A stretch of DNA of 64,000 nt from a virus (Duplodnaviria > Caudoviricetes): positions 1 to 64,000 of the IMG/VR virus record IMGVR_UViG_3300021256_000056. One strand, written 5' to 3'. Shown piece after piece: positions 42,217 to 60,250 of this stretch. How positions within the stretch are numbered: position 1 is the stretch's first letter; each line of letters begins with the position of its first letter. The notes under the pieces were generated by a model. It was not told the DNA's origin. It searched no databases and saw only the letters and a program-made list of their open reading frames with translations. Both the position numbers and the translations under genes were made by a program.

Positions 42217-42223
42217 AAATTTG

Positions 42224-43010: not shown

Positions 43011-43018
43011 ATATTGTG

Positions 43019-44371: not shown

Positions 44372-44505
44372 GACAAGGCAGCGTGTATGCATCACCTTCT
44401 GACCTTGTAGAACGGACTTATATACATACCGTAACATTTTCGTAGTATGTAATTTCATCTGTTTTGTGTCTCCGACGAGGCTCGAACTCGTGACCCCCAC
44501 ATTAA

Positions 44506-45341
44506 CCTACCCAATATAGTTGCCTATACCATCTTACGATGTTTGAGTTTGGACCATTTCTTATCCATGCCACTTCGTGGTTTAGGTGGTGGTGTATGGC
44601 CTCTACACATTTATGCAAAAAAGCAATTTAGCCCGACGTTTTCCCAGGGGGATGTTCGTCGAATTAGCCACCATTCACGACAAGGGTTTCCCCTCGTGTG
44701 CTCCTTTCTTAGATTCACGTAAACATGAAATGCATAACCCGCTTTTAGTTTCCCTATGAAGCGGTTTTCCACATTTTTTGCACACGTGTTTGTACGTGTG
44801 GGTGTGTGTGGTTGTTTTAACCCCCTTCATATTTTTCTTTCCAGCGTAACTATCTGTTTGTGAATGGCAATTAGGACACAAAATCACTAGATTGTCGAGT
44901 TCATTATTAAAATGGTCTCCATCTTTATGATGAACTTGCAACGTTATGCTTTTACCATGCCACTCAGAAATTCCGCATTCTGGATTTTCGCACTTATATT
45001 CTTTCAGCCCCAATGAAATTAGTTTTTTCATTAATTCCGAAGATTTTATAAGTTTGTCTTTAACAAAAAAATCCTCTTTGTCTAGACCGTTGTGATTTTT
45101 ATTTCCGATGTTCGATTTTTGTCCAGTGAAATGTGAGGTATCTAGGTCGTATTCTTTCACGTATTTGTAAAACGTTCTATAATTACCACCAACAGGTTTC
45201 CATCCCACAGCACGACAAAAATCAGCAACACTAAAAACACGTTTACATATCTCTATTGCCTCTTCTTTACCAATTACATTTTTTGTCATAATAACACTTT
45301 TATAATAAATAGTGTTTAATTGGTAAAAGTAAGAAGATTTG
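44506..45341 (-). mobile_element. group I intron (IC3-like) with HNH ORF
   Basis: P/Q/R/S-like AATTCGACGAA, GTCGGGCTAA, GTGTAGAGGCC, AAGAAATGGTCC; terminal G after GGTAG. Confidence 0.85.
44675..45289 (-). CDS. intron-encoded HNH homing endonuclease
   Basis: LQVHHKDGDHFNNELDNLVILCPNCHS. Confidence 0.92.
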   Translation of the reverse strand: MTKNVIGKEEAIEICKRVFSVADFCRAVGWKPVGGNYRTFYKYVKEYDLDTSHFTGQKSNIGNKNHNGLDKEDFFVKDKLIKSSELMKKLISLGLKEYKCENPECGISEWHGKSITLQVHHKDGDHFNNELDNLVILCPNCHSQTDSYAGKKNMKGVKTTTHTHTYKHVCKKCGKPLHRETKSGLCISCLRESKKGAHEGKPLS

Positions 45342-45399
45342 AAGTGTGGTGCTCTACCAACTGAGCTACGGAGACTTTCCTTAAATTACCATAAAATTG

Positions 45400-45475
45400 T
45401 TGCGCAGGACGGGCTCGAACCGACGACTTCCAGGATATGAATCTGGTGCTCTACAACCAACTGAGCTACTGCGCA
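45400..45475 (-). tRNA. tRNA-Met(CAT)
   Basis: loop TTCATAT. Confidence 0.85.
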
Positions 45476-45483
45476 ATATTTTG

Positions 45484-45556
45484 CGGAGACGGGCGGAGTC
45501 GAACCACCGACGCGGGGCTCTTCAGGCCCCCGCTCTACCAACTGAGCTACGTCTCC
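45484..45556 (-). tRNA. tRNA-Phe(GAA)
   Basis: GGGGC-CTGAAGA-GCCCC. Confidence 0.93.
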
Positions 45557-45662
45557 AAAAAAAAGGTAAAATCTTCGAAGATTGCTGCAGCGGAAGTCCC
45601 CGAGTCGAACGGTGGTTACCTGGTGCCCCTTGCATACAATACTGCAACAAATTTTACCTTTG

Positions 45663-45738
45663 TGGGTGTCCTGAGACTCGAACTCAGAAACCTCTTGTGT
45701 ATCAGACAAGTGCTCTCAACCAATTGAGCTAGGCACCC
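45663..45738 (-). tRNA. tRNA-Ile(GAT)
   Basis: CTTGT-CTGATAC-ACAAG. Confidence 0.92.
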
Positions 45739-45748
45739 AGAAATTTTG

Positions 45749-46466
45749 TGGGACAGGAGGGACTCGAACCCTCACCCTCCTTAGAGGACTGGTTCCTCGT
45801 ACCACTATGGCTTTCGCCACCAAAACAACTTCGAACTTGCGGGTTGGATTTTCAAGGCTTGTACACCCCCAGGTTGTCTTGTTTGTGGTCTGGACTGTAT
45901 CTTAACCATATTGAAATCTAGCTAGTAAACATCCTTATACTTATAGTCTCGTAGTTTAATGTGGGTCACGCGACCACCCCTAGCTCATATAAGCATGTTA
46001 TTTCAACTTAGGCTCCTCCTGTATCTCGTCTCTACACACTGTCTATTATTCTATATCTGCGGTCCCTTGTTCTCAGGCTATATTCATTACTGAAGTATAG
46101 TCTTGCAGTATAGATTTTAACATTGGCTCGGCATTAGCATATTATTCCTATTGGGGTTTTACAAGTTTCGCTTATAGTTTTATTCCGATATTCACGGTGT
46201 CCCACAAAACCAATATTTGAATAACTTAGCTTTCACCGAATTAGGAAGGTTCTACATAACGGGTTTCCCCGCGTCCACAGGCTACTCTCCCGTTTGGGAT
46301 TGTTTACCTTATCTATCACGCTTCGCAGCGTCCTGTGGTATGCACTCAAGTTAAACGGGCGCCTATCCGCATACAGAGTGTCTCAGTCTGTAATCTCCAA
46401 GTATAGGTTATCAGTATAAGCCCGTTGTTCATAAGACCAGCGCGTCTACCATTCCGCCACTGTCCC
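45749..46466 (-). tRNA. tRNA-Leu(TAG) split by a group I intron
   Basis: exons CTGGT-CTT | AGGA-ACCAG. Confidence 0.9.
45798..46432 (-). mobile_element. group I intron (IC3-like), no recognisable ORF
   Basis: AATTCGGTGAA, AATGCCGAGCC, GTGTAGAGACG, AAGATACAGTCC; ends GGTACG. Confidence 0.9.
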
Positions 46467-46605
46467 AAAATTAGATAAGGGTGTATAATGCTGCCCTTGC
46501 TATATTGTGTGGCAACCCTTAAATGAGATTTTCCAAATACCTTTGTCTGCCATATTCTCAGGTGCTCATTACTGTAGCATTGATTATGTATATGAAGGTT
46601 ACCAC

Positions 46606-46691
46606 TGGTGCGGCAGGTGAGACTCGAACTCACACGGGATTGCTCCCACCACCCCCTCAAAGTGGCGCGTCTACCATTCCGCCACTGCCGC
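46606..46691 (-). tRNA. tRNA-Leu(GAG)
   Basis: CCACT-TTGAGGG-GGTGG; CCA encoded. Confidence 0.92.
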
Positions 46692-46857
46692 ATAAATATA
46701 TTGTTTTTAAATGGCCCTGGAATCTGTATTGACCACTAAGGGGGTAATCCTCCATCTACAGAATCTGTACCATCAGGTTTATCCCATTGGTTCCCTAAGA
46801 CCCATTCTTTTTCTCGGTGCGTGGTGACACCTCAAACCGTGAATATATACCTAGTTG

Positions 46858-46930
46858 TGGAGGATACGAGACTCGGACTCGTGACCCCCTGCTTGCAAAG
46901 CAGGTGCTCTACCGACTGAGCTAATCCCCC
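46858..46930 (-). tRNA. tRNA-Ala(TGC)
   Basis: CCTGC-TTTGCAA-GCAGG; G3:U70. Confidence 0.93.
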
Positions 46931-47242
46931 TTCATGGTCCTCTTTTAATCGCTATTCATTTAGGGAGCAGGAAGGACCAGTCCTATGACGTGTTAGCCTC
47001 AAACGCCATTCTAAGAGGTTCCTCAAAAATGCACTGCAGTATATGGTGTCCACCATTGCCCCTAATCGCCACCGCTTTCGGAGGGGTTTTGATACCATAG
47101 CATCATCGGAGAAATAAACGGGTTACTTAGTTATCGCTTGGCGCATAGACGCCTCAAACTTGCCTGTTGGCCACCCTTCGTGAGGTACAGAATAACTTAC
47201 TGTTTCTATGCCTTCAGTTACTGCCTCACCCTCACCCGTTCG

Positions 47243-47314
47243 TAGCGGATAGGAGAGTCGGACTCCTCTCTCAAGAATGAAAATCTTGCGTCCTAACCGA
47301 TAGACTAATCCGCC
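47243..47314 (-). tRNA. tRNA-Glu(TTC)
   Basis: CAAGA-TTTTCAT-TCTTG. Confidence 0.9.
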
Positions 47315-47321
47315 ATAAATT

Positions 47322-47452
47322 AAGAGCATAACGGTGTTTCGAACCACCGTTAATTGTTACCAGCGTGCGTTTCCTCTAATACACCAACCGAGTTTATTGT
47401 TTGCTCTGGGACCGTGGCCTTTAGTCCATTATCGAGCCCTCTGGTATCTCTT
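47322..47452 (-). ncRNA. unknown ~135-nt tRNA-trailer RNA, copy 1
   Basis: AAGAGA-TACCAG...GCACG-CTGGTA-ACAA-T-loop hairpin-CTCTT. Confidence 0.65.
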
Positions 47453-47453
47453 G

Positions 47454-47519
47454 TGCGTAAACATGGAGTCGAACCACGTTATTTCTAGGATTGCATTGCC
47501 TCTATATGCTATTTTACGC
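47454..47519 (-). ncRNA. tRNA-like RNA lacking a paired anticodon arm
   Basis: GCGTAAA/TTTACGC acceptor; D and T arms present. Confidence 0.6.
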
Positions 47520-47523
47520 AAAT

Positions 47524-47664
47524 AAGAGCATTATGAAGTCTCGAGCCTTCATAAATTGTTACTTAGCGTGCTCGTCCATCTTTACACTATTCCCGTTAAG
47601 AGTCCTTCCTTTTCACGTTGCCTAGAACTTTTCCGAAAAGAGAACTCACCTCTAAGTATCTCTT
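47524..47664 (-). ncRNA. unknown ~135-nt tRNA-trailer RNA, copy 2
   Basis: AAGAGA-TACTTAG...GCACG-CTAAGTA-ACAA-hairpin-CTCTT. Confidence 0.65.
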
Positions 47665-47665
47665 G

Positions 47666-47748
47666 TGGGCAGGGAGGGATTCGAACCCCCGAAGCCGTGA
47701 GGCAGCAGATTTACAGTCTGCCCGTTTTGACCGCTTACCTACCTACCC
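47666..47748 (-). tRNA. tRNA-Tyr(GTA)
   Basis: GCAGA-CTGTAAA-TCTGC, long variable arm. Confidence 0.92.
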
Positions 47749-47880
47749 ATAAAAAAACTTAAGCCACTCGCGTCCCACAGGTCTGTTCTCGCTTTTATTA
47801 AGAGGTGCACACGAGATTACTCTCCCTCCTTTAAAGTAAGTCGCCCTCCTAAGCCTTGTCCGCTTAAGTTAAAAAACAAC

Positions 47881-47947
47881 GGGAAACATTTTTACGTATG
47901 TTCAGAAAGAAAGTCGGAATTTTAGTAAATTTTGCTGTTAGTTTCCC
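47881..47947 (-). ncRNA. ACAGCAA-helix RNA with Glu(TTC)-like loop
   Basis: GGGAAAC-TAACAGCAA...TTCCGA-CTTTCTT-TCTGAA...GTTTCCC. Confidence 0.7.
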
Positions 47948-47952
47948 TTTAG

Positions 47953-48074
47953 AGCTGATGCAAGGAATCGAACCTCGGTCTGCGGCTTGGAATGCATTTC
48001 TTGATTTTTGCTGTCCGTAACCTTGTCAGAATACCTTATTTGAAAACGCTGTGCTACCACTACACCACATCAGC
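47953..48074 (-). tRNA. tRNA-Gly(TCC) interrupted by a 51-nt ACAGCAA insert (47996-48046) at position 29/30
   Basis: removing the insert restores GCG|GC-ATTCCAA-GCCGC. Confidence 0.83.
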
Positions 48075-48254
48075 TTATATTAAAATCTCCTGTTTGCCTC
48101 GGGTGGACGCGTCGGGCTGAATCCGCCCATCACCCTTAACACCTCGCCATTATGCTATGGCTTTATTCCATACTGCATAAAGGTTTTCCTACCACGTGGG
48201 TCACATAATGTCAACCTGATTGTTGGTTATGTAGCTCCCTCAGAGATAATAAAT

Positions 48255-48332
48255 TGGCGGTGCGTACGGGATTCGAACCCGTGAACTCCACCGTGACAGG
48301 GTGGCATGATAGACCAGCTTCACCAACGCACC
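48255..48332 (-). tRNA. tRNA-Asp(GTC)
   Basis: CCACC-CTGTCAC-GGTGG; CCA encoded. Confidence 0.94.
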
Positions 48333-49020
48333 GTATGCTTTTTCGGTTTAACATTAACCGTATTACTGGCGGTTTTGGTATCGCACTTTTCCGCCTTAGT
48401 GCGTCCGAATTTCACGGAAGCCTTACTATCGCGAATAATGTACTTAAGGCTACTACCAAGGTGACTTGTGGAGCAGCCCTTCGCGATTATGATGCCACAA
48501 TGCACTTGGTTTATAATTTAAGGTTACCTAAAGTAGATGTGCCTTGGATTCGCACCTCTCACGGAGACTTTTTACACCAAAACCACTATAGTCAATTTTG
48601 GATATTAAGTTACTCAGCCTTTGACCCGATATACCATTTCACACCACTGCAGCTGGCGGCGATTTTGTACCTGGCCATACTCATTGTCACTTTAGTTTTT
48701 CGCGCTCGGGCTCCCTGCCCGTGTTGGCGTTGCAACCTCTGACTACTCTCACGGTTAAAACTGTGGGGGGTTCTTGGGAGCAAACACAAAGTGCTTTGGG
48801 AAGCATAGCCTATTGGCTTACTTTAACTCCACACAGGGGTAGTCCTCCCCTGTCCCAAATACATGTTTAGCCCTTGGTTTTCAGGCTTGTATTCTCGTTT
48901 TTTCGAGGTAAATTCGCCCCTTTTTGGTACCCAACGCATTGGAGAGTCGAACTCCGCTGCTTGCATATTCGAAAACACGCCCAAGGGGACCCTACTACCG
49001 TTCGGGATTACTGCTAAATT

Positions 49021-49156
49021 AAGAGCCATAGCATATTCGAATTCCGCTATGTTGTTACCGAATGTGCGAACGTCTCTTGCATTTCACACCGCTGCTAATC
49101 GTACTCCATTGCTATACGCGTAATAGCAACTTAAGGAGCCCTTTCCAGTATCTCTT
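49021..49156 (-). ncRNA. unknown ~135-nt tRNA-trailer RNA, copy 3
   Basis: AAGAGA-TACTGG...GCACAT-TCGGTA-ACAA-TTCGAAT hairpin-CTCTT. Confidence 0.6.
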
Positions 49157-49157
49157 G

Positions 49158-49232
49158 TGGGAGTGGAGGGATTCGAACCCCCGACATCTACCTTGTAAGG
49201 GTAGCGCTCTAAACCAGCTGAGCTACGCTCCC
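49158..49232 (-). tRNA. tRNA-Val(TAC)
   Basis: CTACC-CTTACAA-GGTAG. Confidence 0.93.
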
Positions 49233-49564
49233 GTTTCTCACCTAAGACTAACGCGCTAATCTGTCATTCGCAATGCACTAGGTGTATAACTTTTTTTATA
49301 CGTGCAGTTCTAACCCCCTTCGTGACCCCTCAGTGCTACTATAGTCGCCCTATATTTGGATTACTGACGATACCCTACACCTACTCATCACGCCATTTAA
49401 CCGTGGCTCTCTCGCATTGTTCCAATCTACGAGAGGCCCCCCCACGGTGAGGCCGTTAGTCGGATTTGACTTGAGCAAGAAGTCTGAATTGAACAGCAAG
49501 TTCCGTCCTTACGTAGCGAACAAGGGACGGACGTCTCCCGAACCTGGGTATCTTGCTAAAAAAT

Positions 49565-49716
49565 GTGTAACCAGAAATCAGAAATGTTTTACTCTACCTA
49601 CTGAGCTACATGGGAAGAATACCGTAACTCCCACGGAGGGACTCGAACCCTCGTCCTTAGTTTTACAGACTTACAAACAATTAATGAACTTGCTGTAAGA
49701 TTTCTTCACGTTACAC
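49565..49716 (-). ncRNA. ACAGCAA-helix RNA enclosing a circularly permuted tRNA-Tyr(GTA)-like module
   Basis: order: helix, ACAGCAA, CTGTAAA loop, T arm, acceptor hairpin, D arm, helix. Confidence 0.8.
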
Positions 49717-49732
49717 GGTGATGGTATTTTTG

Positions 49733-49806
49733 CGGGAAGAGAGGGGCTCGAACCCTCGACCTAAGGATTAACAGTCCTTTGCTACCACCAGCTGAGCTAC
49801 CTTCCC
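49733..49806 (-). tRNA. tRNA-Asn(GTT)
   Basis: AAGGA-CTGTTAA-TCCTT; G73. Confidence 0.9.
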
Positions 49807-50123
49807 GAAATTACAGGCACGTAAACGAAATGCCCTCAGACTTCCCAATGGTTTATAGATTAAAGACCTAAAACCATTATGCGGCTCCTTCACACCTACG
49901 AAAAACAGTCTTTGTCAACTACCACGTGTTATAGTATTGTAGGCAAGTTATTCTAACGTCAAACTGCCATGACGATGGTTGCTATTACGCCACACCAAAA
50001 ATAGCGGGTCTGTTTACTAAACAAGAAATTGACCGCAGGTTGGATTTACACCAACTTACTCCCAGTAAAATCCAGGGCTTCAAATTACAAAAGCCTCGCA
50101 CGGTTGATTCCTTGTAGAAATAC

Positions 50124-50235
50124 GGGAAGCGTTTTACGTCCAACGGACGGGGGCGGACTTGAACCGCCGAACCTCTCAAGTTCTGATTTTCAGTCGGAAT
50201 TGTTAAACCTTTGTTGAGATTGCTGTGTGCTTCCC
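50124..50235 (-). ncRNA. ACAGCAA-helix RNA with Phe(GAA) loop, T arm and closed acceptor-like hairpin
   Basis: GGGAAGC-ACACAGCAA...CTGAAAA...GGCGG TTCAAGT CCGCC...CGTCC-GTT-GGACG...GCTTCCC. Confidence 0.78.
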
Positions 50236-50240
50236 TGTTG

Positions 50241-50325
50241 CAGGCGCTGGAGGATTCGAACCCCCGAGGAATTTAATCCTGCTGGTTTTGGAGACCAGTG
50301 CCTTCGACCGCTCGGCCAAGCGTCT
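50241..50325 (-). tRNA. tRNA-Trp(CCA) with long variable arm
   Basis: CTGGT-CTCCAAA-ACCAG; A1:U72, G73; 16-nt variable region. Confidence 0.85.
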
Positions 50326-51028
50326 GTATATATTCCATTAATCCTTTTTTATCGAATGGTAGTCCGTAATGCTTAAACCATTTTCTTATAGCATTATCCG
50401 ACACTCCAAAAGACTTTCCGACTTGTAAAAAACTTCTTTTAACTAAAAAAAGATTAATTAAAGTTTCTTTTGATGGGTGATTTCTTTCCCATGCGCATTC
50501 TCGCGCTTCTATCCAATCTTCTTTGTTTGTGTGTCTTTTCTTTACTATGGTTTTAGTAGTGGATTCGTATTTATTTGAATTTTTTCCTGCATAAGTATCC
50601 GTTTGTGAATGACAATTTGGGCATAATAACATGAGATTTTCAATCCTATTATCGTCATGTATACCATTGATATGGTGGAGTTGTAATGATATCGGTTTAC
50701 CATTCCATTCGCAAATTCCACATTGTGGATTCTCACACTTATTTTCTTTTAAGCCACACTCAATTAGTCTTTTTTTTAGCCGACTTTTGTTTGTGTATAA
50801 ACTATGTTCAACTAGAATGTCATCCATGGGAATTTTTTCTCTGTAGCTTTTTGTCATTCGTTTATAAGAGAATCTTAATTCCAGCCCGAGTTCCTTTGCA
50901 AGCGCCCTTACCTCTTTATAATCTTCCCCGCCAACGTTTTCTATTCCGAGTCTATGACAAAGGTCCAACATATTAACACATTTGTCGTAATTTTCAATTA
51001 ACCTGTCTATCGCGTATTCTCGATTCAT
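50273..51028 (-). CDS. free-standing HNH homing endonuclease with C-terminal HTH
   Basis: LQLHHINGIHDDNRIENLMLLCPNCHS; FGVSDNAIRKW; ORF runs into tRNA-Trp. Confidence 0.92.
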   Translation of the reverse strand: MNREYAIDRLIENYDKCVNMLDLCHRLGIENVGGEDYKEVRALAKELGLELRFSYKRMTKSYREKIPMDDILVEHSLYTNKSRLKKRLIECGLKENKCENPQCGICEWNGKPISLQLHHINGIHDDNRIENLMLLCPNCHSQTDTYAGKNSNKYESTTKTIVKKRHTNKEDWIEARECAWERNHPSKETLINLFLVKRSFLQVGKSFGVSDNAIRKWFKHYGLPFDKKGLMEYIQTLGRAVEGTGLQNQQD

Positions 51029-51216
51029 AATATTCTTTTTATTATAAATAGTATGAAAAGAGAAAAATCGAACCTTTTTGGAAATTTTTATTTAGTTCGA
51101 ATATATAATGAAAAATGAATTTTCCTCTAAGGGGAGTAGTCTAACTCCCCAGTGTGTTTTATGACCTTTTCAGCAAACCAATGTAAAAACCCAATAACTA
51201 TGGTTGTAAAAATTTC

Positions 51217-51281
51217 GGAAATCTGTTTTTCAGAATATTAGATTAAAAGTCTAGTCCTTGATAAATTGCTGTAAGATTTCC
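51217..51281 (-). ncRNA. ACAGCAA-helix RNA with Lys(TTT) anticodon stem-loop
   Basis: GGAAATCT-TACAGCAA...TAGA-CTTTTAA-TCTA...AGATTTCC. Confidence 0.8.
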
Positions 51282-51283
51282 TC

Positions 51284-51374
51284 TGGCGGAGAGGCTGGGA
51301 TTCGAACCCAGGGGACGCTCAACACGCCCAACGGTTTTCAAGACCGCCGCTATCGACCACTCAGCCACCTCTCC
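51284..51374 (-). tRNA. tRNA-Ser(TGA)
   Basis: GCGGT-CTTGAAA-ACCGT; CCA encoded. Confidence 0.93.
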
Positions 51375-51383
51375 ATTAAATTT

Positions 51384-51453
51384 GAACTGCAAAAGGATTC
51401 GAACCTTTACCCGTGGACTATGCCCGCGTGTCCTGTCCATTAGACGATACAAT
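51384..51453 (-). pseudogene. degenerate tRNA
   Basis: D and T arms intact; loop GCATAGT lacks U33. Confidence 0.55.
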
Positions 51454-51525
51454 TTTTTATCGCAGTAAAGAGGCCACCACTGATTTAACACGGCATCAGC
51501 AATGACAACCACTACGCCACGTGTG

Positions 51526-51604
51526 CTGGGGTATGGTGATTCGAACACCAATTATTCTCACGCCCTTAGGGCTTGAGGCGGTACTACCGTTGTACTACAC
51601 CCCA
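51526..51604 (-). ncRNA. Gln-type tRNA body with extended anticodon arm (CCCTAAG apex)
   Basis: U1:A72, G73; CTCAAGCCCTAAGGGCGTGAG. Confidence 0.65.
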
Positions 51605-51725
51605 GTTTATGTCTCTCCAAAGTCACGCCACTTTTGGGTATTTATATCGCGGGGGCAGGTGTCGCCCTCGCTTATGGTAATTTATCTCAATATTGTCAAA
51701 GAACGTGTGTTCCGAAGAACTCTGG

Positions 51726-51778
51726 TGCAAATATATATGTAATTTTTCAAACTACAAAATATTTTTGCATTTTTTTTT
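51726..51778 (-). promoter_or_regulatory. duplicated promoter of the RNA island (second copy ~56856-56906)
   Basis: about 50-bp near-identical repeat with TTTG (-33) and TATATTTG (-7), followed by boxA-like GTTCTTTGA. Confidence 0.75.
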
Positions 51779-51780
51779 TG

Positions 51781-51857
51781 TCTAGGAGATGAGACTCGAA
51801 CTCACATTATCCTGGCTCCTGACCAGGCAACCTCACATCCAATTGGTTTACTCCTAG
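51781..51857 (-). tRNA. tRNA-Pro(AGG)
   Basis: CCTGG-TCAGGAG-CCAGG; C1:G72, A73; C33. Confidence 0.75.
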
Positions 51858-51872
51858 TTATATTTCAATTTG

Positions 51873-51956
51873 TGGCCCCGACGGGACTCGAACCCGTAAC
51901 CCTCGGTTTAAAAGACCGATGCGCTCGCTTTCGCTATCCATTTGCGCCACGAGGCC
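51873..51956 (-). tRNA. tRNA-Lys(TTT) with 10-nt D-loop expansion
   Basis: TCGGT-CTTTTAA-ACCGA; D loop carries GCGAAAGCGA. Confidence 0.82.
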
Positions 51957-52052
51957 GTTCCATTTTTCTCGGAAGCCTCGCATCACAATCGGGGCTTCAC
52001 ATTAATATTTCTGTTTTATACGTTTCATGTTTCTATTTTATTTCTTTTCTTG

Positions 52053-52140
52053 CTGGCCAGGAAGGATTCGAACCTCCAACCTTTGACACATCTAAAGCCT
52101 TTAGGGCAGTGCCTGCTCTCCCATTTGGAGCTACTAGCCA
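52053..52140 (-). ncRNA. Gln-type tRNA body with extended anticodon arm (CCCTAAA)
   Basis: TGGCTAG/CTGGCCA-G; GGCACTGCCCTAAAGGCTTTAGATGTGTC. Confidence 0.65.
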
Positions 52141-52184
52141 GTTCTTTTGACAGTTTTTGGCATGCCACTGACAAACCGACAGGT

Positions 52185-52258
52185 ACTGGGTGACGGAATC
52201 GAACCGACATCAGATGCTTGAAAGGCACCTCGCCTCAACCATTAGCAGATTAACCCAG
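52185..52258 (-). tRNA. divergent tRNA-Glu(TTC)-like gene
   Basis: AGGTGC-CTTTCAA-GCATCT; imperfect acceptor stem. Confidence 0.55.
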
Positions 52259-52266
52259 CATGTATT

Positions 52267-52530
52267 TTAATGAACTAAATGTTTAAATTTTTCCAATTTC
52301 AATTTCGCTTCTTCTCTATCTTCCTCGGTCAAAAGTCTATTTGTACTCCCCACGTGCCACTTATCACACTTTGAACATTTATAAGCCACCATCTTATGTA
52401 ATATGTTTTCACAAGTATTAAGGAACCTGGCCGTTGTCAGAGCATCCATCTCAGTATCGTAGCTCTTTTTGGGGACCAATTTGTCTCCCTCAATCTTATA
52501 ATGGCTTCTTATTGTTCTTTTTTCATCCAT
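52267..52530 (-). CDS. small Zn-ribbon protein
   Basis: AYKCSKCDKWHVG; preceded by a sigma54-like promoter. Confidence 0.7.
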   Translation of the reverse strand: MDEKRTIRSHYKIEGDKLVPKKSYDTEMDALTTARFLNTCENILHKMVAYKCSKCDKWHVGSTNRLLTEEDREEAKLKLEKFKHLVH

Positions 52531-52544
52531 ACGAAATTCATAAT

Positions 52545-52560
52545 GCAAATTTCGTGCCAA
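52545..52560 (-). promoter_or_regulatory. sigma54 (-24/-12) promoter
   Basis: TTGGCACGAAATTTGC. Confidence 0.7.
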
Positions 52561-52984
52561 AGTTTTCTTTTTCTAAAAATTTCTTCAAAAAAACCTCCAG
52601 AGAGTTTTGGGGAACATCTTTGGAGGCGTGGAATATAGTGTCGGTCTAAACCGTGTGGTGCTATGTATTATGCATCTGTTCCCATTATTCCTCCTCCTAG
52701 TCCTTTAAATGGCCATGCGCCGAGGCGTTCCTCTGACTTTCTAATGCTGACATATAGGCATGGGCAATCAAGGCTGCTCTTGTGGGAGCCTCCCATGACG
52801 TTTGTATTATTGCTCAGCATAACCATTTTGTACCTATTTTTCAATTATAAATATATGATAAAATCGAAAAAACTAAAATTCTGTGCAAATATATATGCTT
52901 TTTTTGTAAAAATCAACAAAAAACAAAAAAAAAGAGCGAATTTTTTAGATTCGCTCAATACGTTTATCACTGTTTATTCAAATC

Positions 52985-53323
52985 TTACCTACCAGCAGCG
53001 AGTATGTATGAGGCAATCATTTTTCCCCAAGCATCGTCTCTAGGGATTGAGAATTCACCACCGTTATCCCAATCGTACCCTGTTGGTGCCCACATAATTG
53101 TTATGTGGTCGTAACTTGGCATAAGACGGTACATCTTTCCAGACTTTCCCCTTACCTCAAAATCTTGGTGTCCTTCTTTTGATACACGTTCTCCGTAGAT
53201 GTCGTCCATTATTTCTTTTGAAGGAATGGGGTTATCTGTCCACTCATTTAGCACTTTTTTAACGCTTTCTTTAACTATTTTACGAAGCTGTGATTCGTTG
53301 AGATTTATAGTATTCTTTTTCAT
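52985..53323 (-). CDS. hypothetical protein with large-phage N-terminal LNESQLRKIVKESV motif
   Basis: motif, upstream ACTATTTAT. Confidence 0.7.
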   Translation of the reverse strand: MKKNTINLNESQLRKIVKESVKKVLNEWTDNPIPSKEIMDDIYGERVSKEGHQDFEVRGKSGKMYRLMPSYDHITIMWAPTGYDWDNGGEFSIPRDDAWGKMIASYILAAGR

Positions 53324-53395
53324 GTGCTTTTAATTTTCTTATAAATAGTTTGTTGAAACAAAAAAGCCTCAGATTTATCTGAGGCTTATAGGAAC

Positions 53396-53462
53396 GGAAA
53401 ACTTTTTGTTAAAATTCGAAGTTTGGAATCGGATTTGGTCTAATATTTGCTGTCGGTTTTCC
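53396..53462 (-). ncRNA. ACAGCAA-helix RNA with Trp(CCA)-like loop
   Basis: GGAAAAC-CGACAGCAA...TTCCAAA...GTTTTCC. Confidence 0.68.
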
Positions 53463-53476
53463 TATTTTTGTCTGTT

Positions 53477-53794
53477 TTAGTCTTCAAAGTATTCCTTGAT
53501 AAGTGCCTTAATGGTTTCAAGTTCTACTTCCCTGTCGCGGAGTTCGAGAGCGAGATTGATACGTTTGCGTACCCAGTCCTTGGTGTTGAGGTTTTCTCCG
53601 ACGATGAGGCTCTGTGTGCTTCTCACTGAGAGGTCTTCCATGGAGACAATCTCATTGTTGATGGTGCGGATGCACTTTTCGACTGAACGCTTTTCATCTT
53701 CAAAGACGTCCTTGGTCTCTTCGGTGACATTCTGTGCCCTTTTCTGAATAAGGTTGTCACCAGTGTTTGTTAAGATTTGAGTAAATTTTCCCAT
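53477..53794 (-). CDS. coiled-coil hypothetical protein
   Basis: 105 aa ORF. Confidence 0.65.
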   Translation of the reverse strand: MGKFTQILTNTGDNLIQKRAQNVTEETKDVFEDEKRSVEKCIRTINNEIVSMEDLSVRSTQSLIVGENLNTKDWVRKRINLALELRDREVELETIKALIKEYFED

Positions 53795-53795
53795 A

Positions 53796-54137
53796 TTATT
53801 TGCTGTTTATTACGTGTCTATGCTGGAGTTTATAAAGTCCTGGAACGATTTCGATGCTTGCGTGCGATTCTGATTCCCAGTCTTCGATTGTGTTATCAAT
53901 CTTCTCGATTATGCTTCCTCCGTCGTGTCGCAAAACTTCGTGCATGATTGCAATCTCACGTTTAGTTTCTAATTCCCGATGGACTTTCTCTGGGAGGGCT
54001 GCAGCAAGTGTTGCGTAGTCATTAGAGCTAAGGCTGACCTGCACTGTTACGTTATGGTCTCTCGCATCGCTTTCGCAAGTCACAAGGACGTTATCTCCGT
54101 AATCGTTAGTCGCAGTTAAGTTATTAATATTAGTCAT
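53796..54137 (-). CDS. hypothetical protein
   Basis: 113 aa ORF. Confidence 0.6.
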   Translation of the reverse strand: MTNINNLTATNDYGDNVLVTCESDARDHNVTVQVSLSSNDYATLAAALPEKVHRELETKREIAIMHEVLRHDGGSIIEKIDNTIEDWESESHASIEIVPGLYKLQHRHVINSK

Positions 54138-54154
54138 GTTTTTCGTAAATTTTG

Positions 54155-54226
54155 TGCTCCATACAGGAATCGAACCCGTCTAAGAACGTTTTAGGGACGC
54201 CCGCTCGGCCACTGAGCCAATGGAGC
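54155..54226 (-). tRNA. amber suppressor-like tRNA (CTA)
   Basis: GCTCCAT/ATGGAGC-A; GGCGT-CCCTAAA-ACGTT; C33. Confidence 0.75.
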
Positions 54227-54234
54227 AGAAAGAC

Positions 54235-54295
54235 AGGAAACATTAAAATCAACATTATCAGTGTTTATTTGACGAAAGGTTGCTGTGTGTTTCCT
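54235..54295 (-). ncRNA. ACAGCAA-helix RNA with Ile(GAT) anticodon stem-loop
   Basis: AGGAAACA-CACAGCAA...AACA-CTGATAA-TGTT...TGTTTCCT. Confidence 0.78.
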
Positions 54296-54311
54296 TATCT
54301 TAATGTTTCGT

Positions 54312-54602
54312 TTATTGAACCAACTTAAGTCCTTTAAACATTTCACCCGAATCTTCAACCGCAATTGCCGTAAGGCTATTGTTTAAATCGGGCTCGTAGA
54401 ACGCAGAATAAGTCTTATGTTTGTCCCTCAATCTCTGTCTCCATTTCTCAACGTCGGCGTAGAGATATATAAGGTACTCATTATTCCATTGTTGCTGTGG
54501 GTTATCCAAAAGATATTGTGCAACTGCGTGCCCACCTTGAACGCAGGCGTAAACGGGGTTGAGTCGTTTACTCACCAGCACGTACAATCTCTTCGCAGAC
54601 AT
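54312..54602 (-). CDS. peptidyl-tRNA hydrolase PTH2-like protein
   Basis: LYVLVSKRL...VQGGHAV...FYEPDLNNSLTAIA. Confidence 0.7.
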   Translation of the reverse strand: MSAKRLYVLVSKRLNPVYACVQGGHAVAQYLLDNPQQQWNNEYLIYLYADVEKWRQRLRDKHKTYSAFYEPDLNNSLTAIAVEDSGEMFKGLKLVQ

Positions 54603-55023
54603 CGGTATACACTTTAATCGTTTCTTCCCCCCAGTATGTTTTACAATTTTTTTCCTCATAGACTTTTAACTGATAACCATAGGTTTTCAGATAACTATTA
54701 ATCTCATCAGAATAAAGGAACAAGGGGTGTTTTCCTTCGAGGTGGTCAGCCAAGCGATATCCAGTTTGGCGGTAGTAGTCTTCTTTGTTAAGAGGCTTCG
54801 CCTTATTTTCTATCTGCTCAAACTTTCTTCCTCTCATTAACCCATATGCCGCATACATTGCCCTTAGGGTGTCTTTATTACTAGAAACCTTCCAGCAGGC
54901 TTCATACGGTTGCATTGTCCTTTCGGTCTTTAGGTTAACAGTTTTTCTTTGTTCTTTTGCTTTTCTTTGTTCCACCTCCAAGGCGGCGATTTCCTTACGG
55001 AATTCAATAATTTCTTGTTTCAT
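54568..55023 (-). CDS. hypothetical protein
   Basis: LRAMYAAYGLMRGRKFEQIE; directly upstream of the PTH2-like gene. Confidence 0.7.
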   Translation of the reverse strand: MKQEIIEFRKEIAALEVEQRKAKEQRKTVNLKTERTMQPYEACWKVSSNKDTLRAMYAAYGLMRGRKFEQIENKAKPLNKEDYYRQTGYRLADHLEGKHPLFLYSDEINSYLKTYGYQLKVYEEKNCKTYWGEETIKVYTDVCEEIVRAGE

Positions 55024-55093
55024 AATGTTGTTTGGTTTTAATCATTTTATTTTTGGCTCTCGCCGACAAATTCCACTTTCAAATCAAACACCA

Positions 55094-55126
55094 TTAAGGT
55101 GGAACTGGATTAACCTAGTGTTTCAT
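55094..55126 (-). promoter_or_regulatory. leader uORF MKH-amber-VNPVPP-ochre
   Basis: ATG AAA CAC TAG GTT AAT CCA GTT CCA CCT TAA with A-rich leader. Confidence 0.55.
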
Positions 55127-55158
55127 AACGATAATTGTTAAGTTTGTTATTAAAAATA

Positions 55159-55468
55159 AAAAGAACACTACGGTAGGATTACTGATTACCTACAAATACT
55201 CTACAAGCGCGTTATTCAGTCACACCCAAGAAGGTTAGCTACGCCTACTTTTAAAAGGGTGAGGGGAATGCTTACCCCCAAACGGATACAGCCATCAGTC
55301 ACTGTAACTACGATTTGTCCGTTTCTTACGTCACTCTCGGTTGGCCAACCGAGGCTACTTCAACCTTACGCTTCGTGTTGCCCTCTAACCGCCTCCTGAA
55401 CTTTTCAGTCCAGGCTAACGTACCTTATGGGCAGGCTACCCATTGTTCGGTCACAAAGTGTTCTTTTT
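55159..55468 (-). ncRNA. candidate ~300-nt structured RNA
   Basis: terminal pairing AAAAGAACACT/AGTGTTCTTTT, GC-rich hairpins, own promoter, no credible ORF. Confidence 0.55.
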
Positions 55469-55567
55469 ATGATGGGTCGCCCCGCCATAAATTTTCTTTT
55501 TTTTAAAGAGCTTTTACAAAAATACGACCTTTTAATTAAAAAAGCAAGGTCTTTTAATAAAAAAAAC

Positions 55568-55625
55568 GGAAAACTTTTTTGTGACGCAGTATTATCAGTA
55601 CTTCCAAAATTGCTGTAAGTTTTCC
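55568..55625 (-). ncRNA. ACAGCAA-helix RNA with Ile(GAT) anticodon stem-loop
   Basis: GGAAAACT-TACAGCAA...AGTA-CTGATAA-TACT...AGTTTTCC. Confidence 0.8.
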
Positions 55626-55646
55626 TGCCTTGCCAGGTCGAGTTTG

Positions 55647-55827
55647 TTGCGGGGGCAGGAATCGAACCTGCGACCTTCAGCTTAGGATTGGTAGGAGGAA
55701 TCGAACCTCCGTTTTCACGTGCCTTACTAGGGCTAGATGTCCTGTACCACTAGACGACACCAATCTGGTTCGTTACAGTGAACCACGCTGTATTGAGGCT
55801 GACGAGCTACCGCTGCTCCACCCCGCA
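55647..55827 (-). tRNA. fMet-like tRNA(CAT) whose anticodon contains a 109-nt insert holding a second tRNA-like gene
   Basis: TCAGC-CTCA|insert 55685-55793|TAA-GCTGA. Confidence 0.8.
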
Positions 55828-55982
55828 ATATATTTCAAAATAAAGACTGCCCTTAGATTTAAACTTACCTACGCACAGTGAGGTACTAAGGCGGTTCGTT
55901 CAGGTTGCCCGATTTCGTCTAGAATGTTACGGGCCCTCGTGCGTGTCAAACGGGAATTGGCCGTCGCCTTCCACAGTCTTTG

Positions 55983-56090
55983 TTGCGATGGTAGGATTCG
56001 GACCTACGCTCTGAAACGATGTTTCATATCCTTGGCGCCCCAGGAAACACGGGAGTTGCCCCGCTGCTCTGACCACTGAGCTACACCGCA
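55983..56090 (-). ncRNA. tRNA-like RNA with three hairpins replacing the anticodon/variable arm
   Basis: intact acceptor, D and T arms. Confidence 0.65.
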
Positions 56091-56129
56091 AAGTAAATAT
56101 ATGATAAAAGTTAAAGGTTTCTTAAAAAA

Positions 56130-56830
56130 ATCAGCGTTGTCAAAAGCGCGTGGCCGCTACGCTGATTATAATGTCTAATTAAGCACTATTTTGCCACATT
56201 GGCGTCCATAACCTCCCCTGTAGTGTGATGGACAAACATCACAAAGTCACAGTAACTCAAACAGGTTCCCTCTTGCTACGGCTTACTCTCTCCTTTACCG
56301 CGGGGTCAACGCCATGTCCGCGAGGATTCAGCCTTTACTCATGCACACTCCCGCATCCTACTGATAAACTGCATTACAGTCTCGCTGAGCGGGCCCAGCA
56401 CTAACCAACTACAGAGCACGTGCACATCTCTCATGTTGGTCTGGGAAATAACTCCTCCGATTTCCCGTTGTCAGGTTTCCATCCTAATAAACCCCGCCTA
56501 CTCTATGGGGCAACGAAATACGGCCAGTTACGCATTCATTCCAGAATCCGAGAAGCATTTACGATACACTTCTAAAAACGTTTGAATCATTCGAGCCGAA
56601 AAACTTATTACTTATAGGTTTTATTATATCCTATCGCCCTATAAGATAAAATTCAGCACTTAAAGATAGGATTGCGCCTTAATTCCCCTGTGCAATAATA
56701 CGAGGGTTTAATCCCAACTCGGACTTTTCAAAATGTCTATCCAAGTAGCACTTTTGTTTTCGGGCGTACGAATCGACGTTTTACGAGCATCTTCTGCTCA
56801 CCTTACTTTTCCGACTGCGCGGATTGGATT
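56130..56830 (-). ncRNA. candidate large (~700 nt) structured ncRNA
   Basis: no ORF of 60 aa or more in any frame, hairpin-rich, directly downstream of promoter plus boxA. Confidence 0.55.
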
Positions 56831-56907
56831 TATCTTTCAAAGAACTTTTCTGGATGCAAATATATATGTAATTTTTTAAACTACAAAATATTTTTGCATT
56901 TTTTTTG

Positions 56908-56978
56908 TTGTGGCGCCGAGATTCGAACTCAGAACGCAAGTGCCAAAAACTTGTGTGTTACCATTACACCACGCCACA
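56908..56978 (-). tRNA. tRNA-Gln(TTG)
   Basis: CAAGT-TTTTGGC-ACTTG. Confidence 0.9.
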
Positions 56979-57063
56979 ATATCCAAAAAAAACTGTCTGC
57001 ATTGTTTCTTGGTCACAAAGATACAGACAGTTTTTTAATTTTCAAAATATTTTTTAAAAAAAT

Positions 57064-58608
57064 TTACACTGTCCGTCTTTTTATGTATTGTTGAAGAGCT
57101 TCTTTTACCATAATTTTTACATCGTCTTCCTTAATATATATAGTTTCATTTACACTATTTGCTGCATAAGTTTTAAATTTTGCATCAATTACTTCATCGC
57201 TCCACTTAGGGAAGCGTTGTTTCATTTGTTGTTTAGCTTCTTCCTCGGTTGCGTTATTGATAGTGAAAGTTGTTGGCACACCTTGGCTCATAACCTTCAT
57301 TGTAAAAGTATAACGCTTGGGCTGTTGTGCCGCTTTTTGCTGGGCATACTGTAAATGTGGGTTGCCAGTATTTCCGTATAAAAATGACGCAAGGCTATCG
57401 AGTCGAAAATCGGCATTTGTTATTTCATCGTTATAAAGTACATTGAATTCTCCTTTTCTGACATCTGTTAAGATATTATCAAAATTATTAGTTAAATAAT
57501 TACTCGTTCCTTTATTAGGCTTGTGTCTTAATATTGCTCCGTCGTAAATCTCGCACCAGTCGGCATAACTAAATTTGTCCCGAGAATTCAATATATCTTC
57601 CTTTGCATCATACCATCCGTTGGTTGCAACAATTCTATATGCATATTTATATGTTTCTTTTAGTCTGGAGGAAGTGTATGGTTGATTATATTTCATCCTA
57701 AAAAGATACCATGGTGATTTCATTTCTTTTCCACTGGCTATAATTTCACGTTGATAGTCAACTTTAACATCTGGCAGCACACCTTCTATCGAATCTGAGG
57801 TTGTATAATAATATGCCCCAATGTTATTGACTCTGTGATATCTCTTTATATTTCCGTCGGTGGTTACACATAGTATAAGTCTTGCGATATTTGAAGCTGG
57901 GTTAGATTCATAATAACGTATGTAATCATCTGCTTTGTTTTGTGGCGGTATAATGTATCCATAATTAAATACCTTTCCTGTGCGTCTTCCAGTCTCGGGT
58001 GCAGAGAATTGTATTTTAAAGAATTTTATGCCCTTTGACGCCGCCCTGTTGAACTTTTCTTTCATTGCGTCCGTAAAATCCATCTGTTCCATCTGTTCAG
58101 CTTTGGCGATTCTTTCAACGGTGAAGAATTCATTAGATTTCAGGGATACTTGTTCCGCTATCCTCATAAAATCGGGCCCGTGGTGTATAAATTTTTGACG
58201 TGTTGCGGCGAAGAAACCGAAAACGTGCTGACGATAGTGGCACATCTCGTGCACCAATGTGCTTAAAGCTGCTTTTTCAGTCCAATTGTAATTGCCATTT
58301 AGCTGGATTTCGGGATTCATATAATATTCGAAATCCATTGGCTCCATGCTATCTTCCCCATCTATATAATATTGATAACCACTCCCCTCTCGGCTATAGG
58401 GAACCCACTTGTGTTTTACTTGCCAACTGGGCCTTACCTTAAACCATCCTAACGTGCGACCCTGACTTCCCTTACCAGTAGTAAAAAGTGTGAGCTTACA
58501 TTTAGGAAGTATACCATTAAAGAGAAGTTTGTTCATTTCATCAAACTTCTCGGCCATCCATTCTGGGGTAATGGTAATGAGGGTTTTATCGTCTACTTCG
58601 TTAAGCAT
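57064..58608 (-). CDS. SprT-like zinc metalloprotease
   Basis: FDEMNKLLFNG.LP, TLVHEMCH, HGPDF. Confidence 0.85.
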   Translation of the reverse strand: MLNEVDDKTLITITPEWMAEKFDEMNKLLFNGILPKCKLTLFTTGKGSQGRTLGWFKVRPSWQVKHKWVPYSREGSGYQYYIDGEDSMEPMDFEYYMNPEIQLNGNYNWTEKAALSTLVHEMCHYRQHVFGFFAATRQKFIHHGPDFMRIAEQVSLKSNEFFTVERIAKAEQMEQMDFTDAMKEKFNRAASKGIKFFKIQFSAPETGRRTGKVFNYGYIIPPQNKADDYIRYYESNPASNIARLILCVTTDGNIKRYHRVNNIGAYYYTTSDSIEGVLPDVKVDYQREIIASGKEMKSPWYLFRMKYNQPYTSSRLKETYKYAYRIVATNGWYDAKEDILNSRDKFSYADWCEIYDGAILRHKPNKGTSNYLTNNFDNILTDVRKGEFNVLYNDEITNADFRLDSLASFLYGNTGNPHLQYAQQKAAQQPKRYTFTMKVMSQGVPTTFTINNATEEEAKQQMKQRFPKWSDEVIDAKFKTYAANSVNETIYIKEDDVKIMVKEALQQYIKRRTV

Positions 58609-58674
58609 TTATTATAAATAGGCAAATAAAAAGAAAAACCACCATTTACACTTGTGTGTATTTGGTGGTTTTTG

Positions 58675-59289
58675 TGGCCCAGGCGGGACTCGAACCCGCA
58701 CGGCCCTTGCGGGCCAGCAGATTTTCTTACCACTATAGCTTTCACTACCTAAACAACTTCGAACAATCGGGTTGGATTTTCAAGGCTTTATACCCCCAGG
58801 TTGTATAGTTTGTGGTCTGGACTGTATCTTAACCATATTGAAATCTTGCAAGTGTCATACGCATAGTAAACTATAAACATTATAGGTGGAGTCTCTCAGG
58901 TTCCGCTCTTCCTATAAGAGGCTATAGTCTGTTGCCGTAATTCTATTTCAACTTAGGCTCCTCCTGTATCTCGTCTCTACACACATACGTTGCGGGGATG
59001 TCCCGAAAACAAGGCTACTTGCTGCCCTCTGCTACCTTATTAGGGTAGATAGCGTTGCAATTACTTGTTCGTACTTGGCTCGGTATTACCAACAGCGTTA
59101 ATTTTCTCCACTCCATAGAATTCAACTCATTGGCAGTAATCTTCCAATGCTTCACATCTACTTCAACGCTTCCTTGAATTTTAACCTGCTAAGGTTTCAC
59201 CGAATTAGGGAGGTTCTACATCTCTTGTTTCCAAGAGCGCACTCAAATTTTCATTAAGTCTGCCGCGTATACCATTCCGCCACTAGGCC
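58675..59289 (-). tRNA. tRNA-Leu(TAA) split by a group I intron
   Basis: exons GCAGA-CTT | AAAA-TCTGC. Confidence 0.92.
58726..59255 (-). mobile_element. group I intron (IC3-like), no recognisable ORF
   Basis: same P/Q/R/S core as 45798-46432; U34/A35 site as in cyanobacterial and plastid trnL(UAA). Confidence 0.9.
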
Positions 59290-59512
59290 ATAATTTAGTC
59301 TCATATTTAGAGGTATGGTAATTAGCTTTACGACCTGCGTTCATACTCGGTGGGGCGACCATGCCCACCTTTCTTACTGGCGACCCGCATCATTTCATCG
59401 GAGGTCAACATTGTGAATCAGCATTACCTGGTCTTCAACATTAGTATCTTCTTTCCGTCATTCGGAATCTTTTGCCAATCTCTAAACGTTTATTTTCAAA
59501 GAACTTCTTTTG

Positions 59513-60250
59513 TGGTCCCTGTAGGACTTGAACCTACGACCATCTGATTCGTACCACCATAGCTTTTACTACCAAAATTGATTACATGAACAAATCCTAA
59601 GTACCGTATCAGCCTTAAGCCGATTATGCCTACATTATGACCGTCCTACTATAACGGTGTAATCAGTCCTAACATTGCTTCATCCTATTAGGGCACTTTA
59701 ATTTTGTTTGTGGTCTGGACTGTCTCTTAACCATATTGAAATCTTGCAAGTAAGTATTGATGTTTCGAGCATCTACCTCGCTCTTATCGAGCGGATATTC
59801 CATTACCTTCGGAAAATACAATTTCAACTTAGGCTCCTCCTGTATCTCGTCTCTACACACTGTCTAAACAAATAATTGAAATGTAGCTTAGATGTTCTAT
59901 TCTGTAATTCAAACATCAACGACTTTTCATTACATTTCCAACTAACATCGTACCTACAGACGCGATGAATTCATTTGTTTTAACATTGGCTCGGTATTAG
60001 CATATTTGGACTGTCTTCTTACACATAGATTCTAAACGACTGCTATCATTACTGAAATTCAGTTAACTATGTACTACTGTTGACAATACACCAACTAATT
60101 TAGACGATTATCCGATATATTCCTGTACATCCAAACTATAGCTTTTACCGAATTAGGGAGGTTCTACATCCAAGGTTTCCCTTGGTGCACACAATTTCTT
60201 TTCAAAGAACTAATGAGTCAGGTGCTCTAACCAAACTGAGCTAAGGGACC
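59513..60250 (-). tRNA. tRNA-Ile2/Met(CAT) split by a group I intron
   Basis: exons CCTGA-CTCAT | AA-TCAGA. Confidence 0.87.
59550..60212 (-). mobile_element. group I intron (IC3-like) at position 36/37
   Basis: shared core AAGAGACAGTCCAGACCACAAAC and GTGTAGAGACGAGATACAGG; ends GGTACG. Confidence 0.88.

Follow-up and report, generated by a model that had tools for sequence, protein, structure and literature searches.

A survey of group I introns in bacterial and archaeal assemblies sorted those of tRNA genes into 21 tRNA/site classes, all in the anticodon loop and almost all with a U before the intron and a G at its end (Williams 2020, bioRxiv 10.1101/2020.01.27.920355). In phages, every intron known by 2014 lay in a protein-coding gene (reviewed in PMC3984707), in agreement with the statement in a first-pass annotation of the DNA studied here that phage group I introns are mostly reported from such genes. 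The tRNA introns of Lak megaphages were described as 'enigmatic', are short and were left unclassified, and introns in phage tRNAs were stated to be previously unreported (Devoto 2019, PMC6784885). A 2026 survey of recoded jumbo phages also mentions 'intronic sequences' in tRNAs, again unclassified (PMC13037316). Our full-text literature search turned up no description of a group I intron in a tRNA gene of a phage. Here, we describe four inserts, very probably group I introns of the bacterial tRNA anticodon-loop kind (IC3-like, Azoarcus/Anabaena type), which split tRNA genes of a large gut/rumen phage, the virus record IMGVR_UViG_3300021256_000056. The window, that is, the whole stretch of DNA analysed, comprises the first 64 kb (64,000 nt) of this linear IMG/VR record of 195,095 nt (GC 39%, CheckV completeness 53%).

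The four split genes are found at the places given by the first-pass annotation. The introns follow U34 in tRNA-Lys(UUU), tRNA-Leu(UAG) and tRNA-Leu(UAA), and U36 in a tRNA with anticodon CAU, which is either tRNA-Ile2 or elongator tRNA-Met. Their parts are located as follows.

45375-45342, minus strand: tRNA-Lys(UUU) 5' exon, ending at U34
45341-44506, minus strand: predicted group I intron of tRNA-Lys(UUU), 836 nt, a divergent member of the family
44505-44467, minus strand: tRNA-Lys(UUU) 3' exon, placed by exon-end location and the cloverleaf formed on joining
46466-46433, minus strand: tRNA-Leu(UAG) 5' exon, ending at U34
46432-45798, minus strand: predicted group I intron of tRNA-Leu(UAG), 635 nt
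45797-45748, minus strand: tRNA-Leu(UAG) 3' exon, colinear with an uninterrupted Leu(UAG) gene of the related record G001
59289-59256, minus strand: tRNA-Leu(UAA) 5' exon, ending at U34
59255-58726, minus strand: predicted group I intron of tRNA-Leu(UAA), 530 nt, at the classical cyanobacterial/plastid site
58725-58674, minus strand: tRNA-Leu(UAA) 3' exon, colinear with an uninterrupted Leu(UAA) gene of record G003
60250-60213, minus strand: CAU tRNA 5' exon, ending at U36
60212-59550, minus strand: predicted group I intron of the CAU tRNA, 663 nt, with guide GUG
59549-59512, minus strand: CAU tRNA 3' exon, placed by exon-end location and the cloverleaf formed on joining

Each intron is preceded by U and terminated by G, with a tail that reads GGUANG, as first noted, and the exons joined in silico form a standard cloverleaf with the stated anticodon according to ARAGORN. 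The intron mode of the same program detects all four split genes, with misplaced junctions and wrong names (Stop, Ile, Arg and similar). For Leu(UAA), Leu(UAG) and Lys(UUU), related phage records contain uninterrupted genes to which the spliced forms can be aligned gap-free across the anticodon loop, and these sites therefore show presence/absence polymorphism. Four precise inserts bounded by U and G, each of which restores a tRNA when removed, cannot be explained by chance. The exons of the CAU tRNA gave weak blastn matches in Escherichia coli (both with E around 0.4), the 5' exon to tRNA-Met and the 3' exon to tRNA-Ile.

The junction of the Lys gene can be read in two registers. Splicing one base earlier, after U33 and with an intron one G shorter, would yield tRNA-Asn(GUU), and a U before the intron and a G at its end are present in both registers. 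However, the U-G wobble at the cut and the tail register of the family are obtained only with U34. The body of the tRNA is identical at 63 of 73 positions to a Lys(UUU) of another phage whose junction is unambiguous, and at 58 of 73 to an uninterrupted Lys(UUU), but at just 44 of 73 to the window's own Asn(GUU). The latter gene is already present and intact at 49732-49806. An Asn product is therefore extremely unlikely, and the Lys(UUU) junction of the first-pass annotation is favoured.

On sequence grounds, the strongest argument that these introns function is the match between guide and site. The internal guide sequence consists of the bases immediately upstream of P2 and is complementary to the exon end. 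It is GAG (often GAGU or GAGUG) at every site where the exon ends in CUU, and GUG where it ends in CAU. Introns after U33 of Leu(UAA) (exon end GACU) carry GGUU, and the intron after U36 of Lys(UUU) (exon end UUUU) carries GGAA. All four window introns follow these rules, with the U at -1 forming a U-G wobble in P1, and the guide covaries with the site across at least 26 relatives. The two or three bases 5' of the guide are complementary to the start of the 3' exon (P10), and they vary with the tRNA. In the Leu(UAG) intron, the guide (46347-46342) is followed by an extra helix (46338-46332 / 46281-46275) ahead of P2.

From this anatomy we infer a conventional splicing pathway. The tRNA array would be transcribed, and the 5' exon would pair through its terminal three to five bases (CUU or CAU) with the guide (GAG or GUG) to form P1, with the U-G wobble at the cut. 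Free guanosine would attack the 5' splice site, after which the terminal G of the GGUANG tail, placed by P9.0 (the GGU of the tail paired with the strand after P7), would take the same site. Joining of the exons would then create the anticodon loop. The earlier suggestion that the introns hide anticodons until splicing is speculation.

The structure of the inserts was examined with covariance models. The Rfam model RF00028 aligned over its whole length to the Lys intron (44527-44722; 34.4 bits, E 1.5e-6 in a 2-kb search) and scored 18.2 bits with the Leu(UAG) intron. Compact introns of 185-193 nt in Ser(UGA) genes of other phages allowed the full secondary structure to be drawn, and our own covariance model, R1, was built only from these. 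R1 matches all four introns: Leu(UAA) with 46.9 bits (E 5.5e-15), Lys with 39.5 bits (E 2e-12; 44519-44715, with P2, P3, P4, P8 and P9 aligned), CAU with 22.5 bits (E 2e-6) and Leu(UAG) with 18.8 bits (E 4e-5). The inserts lie at anticodon-loop sites used by the family and are probably IC3-like, in line with the resemblance to the IC3 trnL(UAA) intron stated in the first-pass annotation. No further intron copies were found in the 195-kb record. One additional R1 match, at 13939-14122 on the plus strand (17 bits), was rejected as a false positive, as it lies inside an Amidase_2 open reading frame (ORF) and lacks P4-P6.

Covariation was measured in alignment A3, a MAFFT alignment of 26 family members whose junctions had been solved independently. 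Ten helix segments (nine helices by the tool's count), belonging to P2, P3, P4, P6, P7, P8, P9.0 and P9, are 94.3% paired, compared with 35-41% when the partners are slid. Both sides change in 22 of the 50 pairs, against 6-10 with slid partners, and none of 500 shuffles attained any of these measures. The strands of P3 and P4 in the Lys intron differ from those of its relatives, yet they are fully complementary. Across the alignment, the P9.0 pairing upstream of the terminal G also shows compensatory change. The core order from P3 to P9 is canonical and includes the P3/P7 pseudoknot, as seen in the Rfam alignment, in R1 and in the pair counts. In the Lys intron and in the compact relatives, P7 is a continuous helix of 6 bp. 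Loops of the GNRA type are present, with GAAA capping P2 and GAAA, AAAA or GCAA on the last hairpin, and P8 of the three related copies, Leu(UAG), Leu(UAA) and CAU, holds both halves of the 11-nt receptor motif. We infer tertiary contacts between these loops and the receptor-like motifs. The Azoarcus architecture has GNRA loops on P2 and on the terminal hairpin, and receptor-like motifs in P8 and P5.

Several results weigh against the assignment. RF00028 gave no match for the Leu(UAA) and CAU introns, even with an E-value cut-off, and nothing at E<=1 when the whole 195-kb record was searched. At the Rfam gathering threshold (50 bits) no intron is detected, all scores being lower. The group I model search put forward with the first-pass annotation is thus positive, below threshold, for the Lys and Leu(UAG) introns and negative for the other two. 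Furthermore, P7, the helix that binds guanosine, is not continuous in the three related window introns: an internal loop separates 3 bp from additional pairs, and an insertion there is correlated with a substitution. The large peripheral inserts might also make splicing dependent on protein. Large loop inserts lower the RF00028 scores. No Rfam group I seed sequence is bacterial, and the survey of bacterial and archaeal assemblies worked at 18-20 bits (Williams 2020, bioRxiv 10.1101/2020.01.27.920355). The gathering score itself is a curated score and not a structural feature.

The sub-threshold Rfam scores and the internal loop in P7 of the three related copies could also be read as signs of decay, in which case the inserts would be intron relics that no longer splice and the four genes would be tRNA pseudogenes. 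Apparently broken relatives do exist elsewhere, namely a CAU copy lacking four loop bases and two chimeric exon pairs. Against this, the exons in the window are intact, the guides match their sites, and the core helices have been kept through compensatory change across 26 copies. Moreover, the codons read by the four intron-split tRNAs (AAA, UUA, CUA and AUA) are abundant, together making up about 10% of the codons in 133 long ORFs. None of the four is clearly duplicated by an intact gene, and no intact Lys(UUU) gene is found among the called tRNA genes. We consider decay very unlikely and retain the assignment to group I introns that are probably functional.

A segment of 8 nt just 5' of the P8 3' strand is self-complementary in most members, and this property has been kept by paired substitutions in at least four variants. 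Its length does not allow a hairpin, and a role in RNA dimerisation or as a DNA recognition site is possible.

58846-58853, 45919-45926 and 59744-59751 (A3 columns ~1106-1113): self-complementary 8-nt segment in the window

The lineage is not restricted to this record. A search of IMG/VR with a degenerate core pattern retrieved 38 stretches in about 31 contigs of 5-393 kb, always within tRNA arrays where context was available; a first, near-exact core pattern had retrieved nothing from IMG/VR. Using a rule-based junction solver (U before the intron, terminal G, 7-nt loop and 5-bp anticodon stem, with the result checked by ARAGORN), unique junctions were solved for 24 further introns. Those located after position 34 split Leu(UAA) (ten), Ser(UGA) (four), Arg(UCU) (two), Lys(UUU) (two) and Leu(UAG) genes; those after 33 split Leu(UAA) (two), and those after 36 split CAU tRNAs (three) and Lys(UUU) (one). 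Overall, the hosts are Leu, Ser, Arg, Lys, Thr and CAU tRNAs, with introns after 33, 34 or 36 in at least ten tRNA/site combinations. Several records contain two copies, and the window, with three plus the Lys intron, contains the most seen.

Among GenBank phages, the lineage is present in tRNA-Leu(UAA) of Lak megaphages. Megablast of the region against GenBank phages returned only a tRNA-Ala match, and a search for relatives with the SprT-like neighbour found none. In Prevotella phage Lak-B3 (MK250022.1 289077-290281, gene ~62-805), tRNA-Leu(UAA) apparently contains two group I introns. One lies after U34 (R1 36.3 bits); the other, which has a matched guide of its own, interrupts the D-loop (R1 19 bits). 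To our knowledge, a D-loop location has not been described for any group I intron of a tRNA.

The core pattern was also found in 13 contigs of metagenome-assembled genomes (MAGs) from GTDB. Eight of these belong to Armatimonadota and include contigs of 428 kb and 4.2 Mb; in Armatimonadota chromosomes, a lineage intron of about 790 nt lies after U33 of tRNA-Leu(UAA) and has a matching guide. Further matches, in Thr(UGU) after position 36, come from a Wujia MAG and from rumen Clostridia and Ruminococcus contigs. The lineage is thus common to bacteria and phages, and the Armatimonadota introns are a possible reservoir or sink of the phage family.

In contigs 3300021399_001898 and 3300028048_000103, family introns are located between halves of different tRNAs, pairing an Arg(UCU) 5' half with a Leu(UAA) 3' half and a Ser(UGA) 5' half with a Lys(UUU) 3' half. 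Such pairs reflect either a deletion caused by recombination of two copies of the intron or a join made in assembly.

The record studied here is itself a metagenome-derived contig, and together with these two chimeric pairs this raises the question of whether the window inserts could be assembly chimeras formed at repeated sequence. Each of them, however, lies between two halves that belong to the same tRNA. No identical repeat between the copies exceeds 41 nt, and the longest common block (127 nt) is just 90% identical. Moreover, about 31 independent contigs, as well as curated Lak genomes, show the same architecture. We give almost no credence to an assembly artefact and treat the inserts as genuine introns.

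Three of the window introns, Leu(UAG), Leu(UAA) and CAU, belong to one lineage that occupies different sites (after 34 and after 36), as the first-pass annotation had recognized. They share the blocks P2-P3-P4, P4'-P6, J6/7-P7-P3'-P8, P8'-J8/7-P7'-P9.0, a GNRA-capped terminal hairpin and the tail. The core blocks are near-identical, with J6/7-P7-P3'-P8 identical at 41 of 41 positions, and the peripheral parts, with their inserts in P5, P6, P8 and P9, cannot be aligned with each other. The same annotation attributed this to spread between tRNAs of one genome, a claim that finds no support in that form: large parts of these introns have their closest relatives in introns that split different tRNAs of different phages. 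Over nucleotides 16-235, the CAU intron shows 97% identity to a Leu(UAA) intron of another phage, and over nucleotides 43-235 it shows 96% identity to the intron that a third phage carries after position 33 of Leu(UAA). Likewise, a CAU intron elsewhere matches the P8 module of the window Leu(UAA) intron at 89% identity, and the 5' extension of the Leu(UAG) intron (first ~90 nt) is 83% identical to the Leu(UAA) intron of another phage. The two Leu introns of the window have their last 127 nt in common, at 90% identity. In a tree of the concatenated core, copies cluster neither by genome nor by tRNA; the mosaic nature of the sequences makes this tree uninformative.

Recent transposition within this genome would account for the 41-nt core block identical in all three copies. 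It would also account for a GAGA insertion in P7 that is combined with an A-G-C-C P8 base, a combination found in none of 23 other relatives; CAU introns of other phages have no P7 insertion. On the other hand, the identity of 96-97% over about 200 nt between the CAU intron and Leu(UAA) introns of other phages, and that of 89% between the Leu(UAA) P8 module and a CAU intron elsewhere, speak against it, and overall the window copies are not mutual nearest relatives. This pattern fits recombination or gene conversion within a shared pool better than duplication of whole introns, and recent intragenomic transposition appears unlikely, although it deserves some weight. The block comprising J6/7, P7, P3' and the P8 base is limited to the three window copies and suggests local gene conversion. 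We conclude that the window copies are probably not recent whole-intron duplicates but mosaics, assembled from a pool of recombining introns that phages have in common. The picture that emerges is of a pool whose members would be retargeted by changes in the guide sequence.

The Lys intron is the more divergent member, as initially described; R1 matches it as a distant relative, and it encodes an HNH endonuclease of 204 aa. This ORF is located in L1, between the 5' splice site and the guide, and its stop codon lies within helix P2. Two free-standing paralogues are present in the tRNA array.

45289-44675, minus strand: intron-encoded HNH endonuclease, 204 aa (PHROG 10822, E 6.9e-42)
50273-51028, minus strand: free-standing HNH paralogue in the tRNA array, identified by profile matches and by alignment to the intron-encoded HNH
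39415-40140: third HNH paralogue, free-standing, in the array

The intron-encoded protein and the paralogue at 50273-51028 are 40% identical. The HNH catalytic motif is present, with its His and Asn and a pair of Cys recognisable when the two are aligned; Pfam HNH/HNH_3 matches to the HNH proteins are below the cut-off. The 3' end of the gene at 50273-51028 overlaps the 5' part of a tRNA-Trp gene (50240-50325, minus strand) by about 50 nt, an arrangement similar to the intronic HNH running into helix P2. A search for relatives with the Lys-intron HNH returned only distant HNH-domain matches, and therefore no close relative of the Lys intron was found. In another record, a Leu(UAA) intron of 977 nt carries an HNH ORF at the same L1 position. 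The intron-encoded HNH and its two free-standing paralogues would most likely drive spread at the DNA level into intron-less alleles of co-infecting phages. Copies without an ORF would probably spread by recombination and co-conversion, and would reach new sites via guide changes.

The tRNA array itself occupies the minus strand at about 38-60 kb and contains around 40 tRNA genes, a transfer-messenger RNA (tmRNA) and several small ORFs, including the three HNH genes. The sequencing runs that contain the phage are animal gut metagenomes, and its share in the RNA runs is small. The tmRNA gene (43016-43421, minus strand, 109.5 bits) encodes the tag GNNTYAIAA, which we take to be Bacteroidota-like and hence a weak pointer to the phage host. 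The tRNA at 54154-54226 (minus strand) has the anticodon CUA (amber suppressor; named tRNA-Pyl by ARAGORN), which hints at TAG recoding in part of the phage. At 55646-55827 (minus strand), a tRNA-shaped gene holds an insert of 109 nt in its anticodon loop that folds by itself as a tRNA-like unit (ARAGORN 55685-55764), resembling the 'intron that may encode a tRNA' of Lak phages (PMC6784885). Three further tRNA-like genes (42102-42340, 47953-48074 and 41772-41910, all on the minus strand) contain short inserts of 24-51 nt with one motif in common; the group I core is absent from these genes. A conserved AT-rich element is found immediately upstream of five ORFs of the array, including the HNH gene of the Lys intron, and is probably a phage promoter or a translation start signal.

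40147-40177, 45298-45328, 51037-51067, 53334-53364 and 58607-58637: AT-rich element of about 30 nt upstream of array ORFs

These introns are real and appear ordinary in mechanism, and they are unusual in their host gene, their copy number and their clear record of retargeting. The family occupies ten or more tRNA/site combinations and has a matched guide in each, which makes phage tRNA genes a regular home of group I introns. Standard tRNA finders miss or misname such genes, and this introduces bias into the tRNA repertoires of large phages and into arguments on their codon supply. The family also offers a natural series for how a group I intron gains a new site, and its compact members of 185-193 nt, together with the curated Lak copies, are direct material for splicing assays. 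A more far-reaching proposal sees in the lineage a family of mobile ribozymes that can be retargeted and has specialised in the tRNA arrays of phages, changing site through three to five guide bases, swapping modules by recombination, and kept by phages because it is beneficial. Intron-bearing genes might be immune to the HNH nucleases of the array, which would destroy or convert the tRNA loci of co-infecting competitors; GTP-dependent splicing might gate the supply of tRNAs for A-ending codons; or precursors might escape host anticodon nucleases. Taken as a whole, this proposal is rather improbable.

Among described systems, the Azoarcus tRNA-Ile intron resembles the CAU intron of the window in its position directly after the anticodon in the loop of a CAU tRNA, its GAAA-capped P2 and terminal hairpin and its core order. 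Its guide pairs as CAU/GUG in P1, as it does in the window CAU intron. The Azoarcus intron is, however, bacterial and only 205 nt long (PMC13168695), whereas the CAU intron has 663 nt, is encoded by a phage, carries large inserts in P5, P6, P8 and P9 and ends in the GGUANG tail; the likeness is one by description. With the cyanobacterial and plastid Leu(UAA) intron, the window shares the tRNA, the site between U34 and A35 and a short P1 built on CUU, a site written CUU/a...g/AAAA (Williams 2020, bioRxiv 10.1101/2020.01.27.920355). Here, in contrast, the host is a phage tRNA array, and the lineage is also found in other tRNAs and at position 33. By the definitions of the same survey, which covered bacterial and archaeal assemblies rather than phages, the sites 34/35 in Leu(UAA) and 36/37 in the CAU tRNA are sites used by IC3-type bacterial tRNA introns. 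The combination of a self-splicing intron with an endonuclease ORF as a mobile unit is familiar from phage protein-gene introns with HNH or GIY-YIG endonucleases; in the window the targets are tRNAs and the ORF lies in L1. I-Ssp6803I, in the tRNA-fMet intron of Synechocystis, is a precedent for an endonuclease inside a tRNA intron (cited in PMC3984707). Finally, the published inserts in tRNAs of Lak and jumbo phages are short and unclassified, unlike the introns described here, and Lak-B3 tRNA-Leu(UAA) also holds unannotated introns of this lineage.

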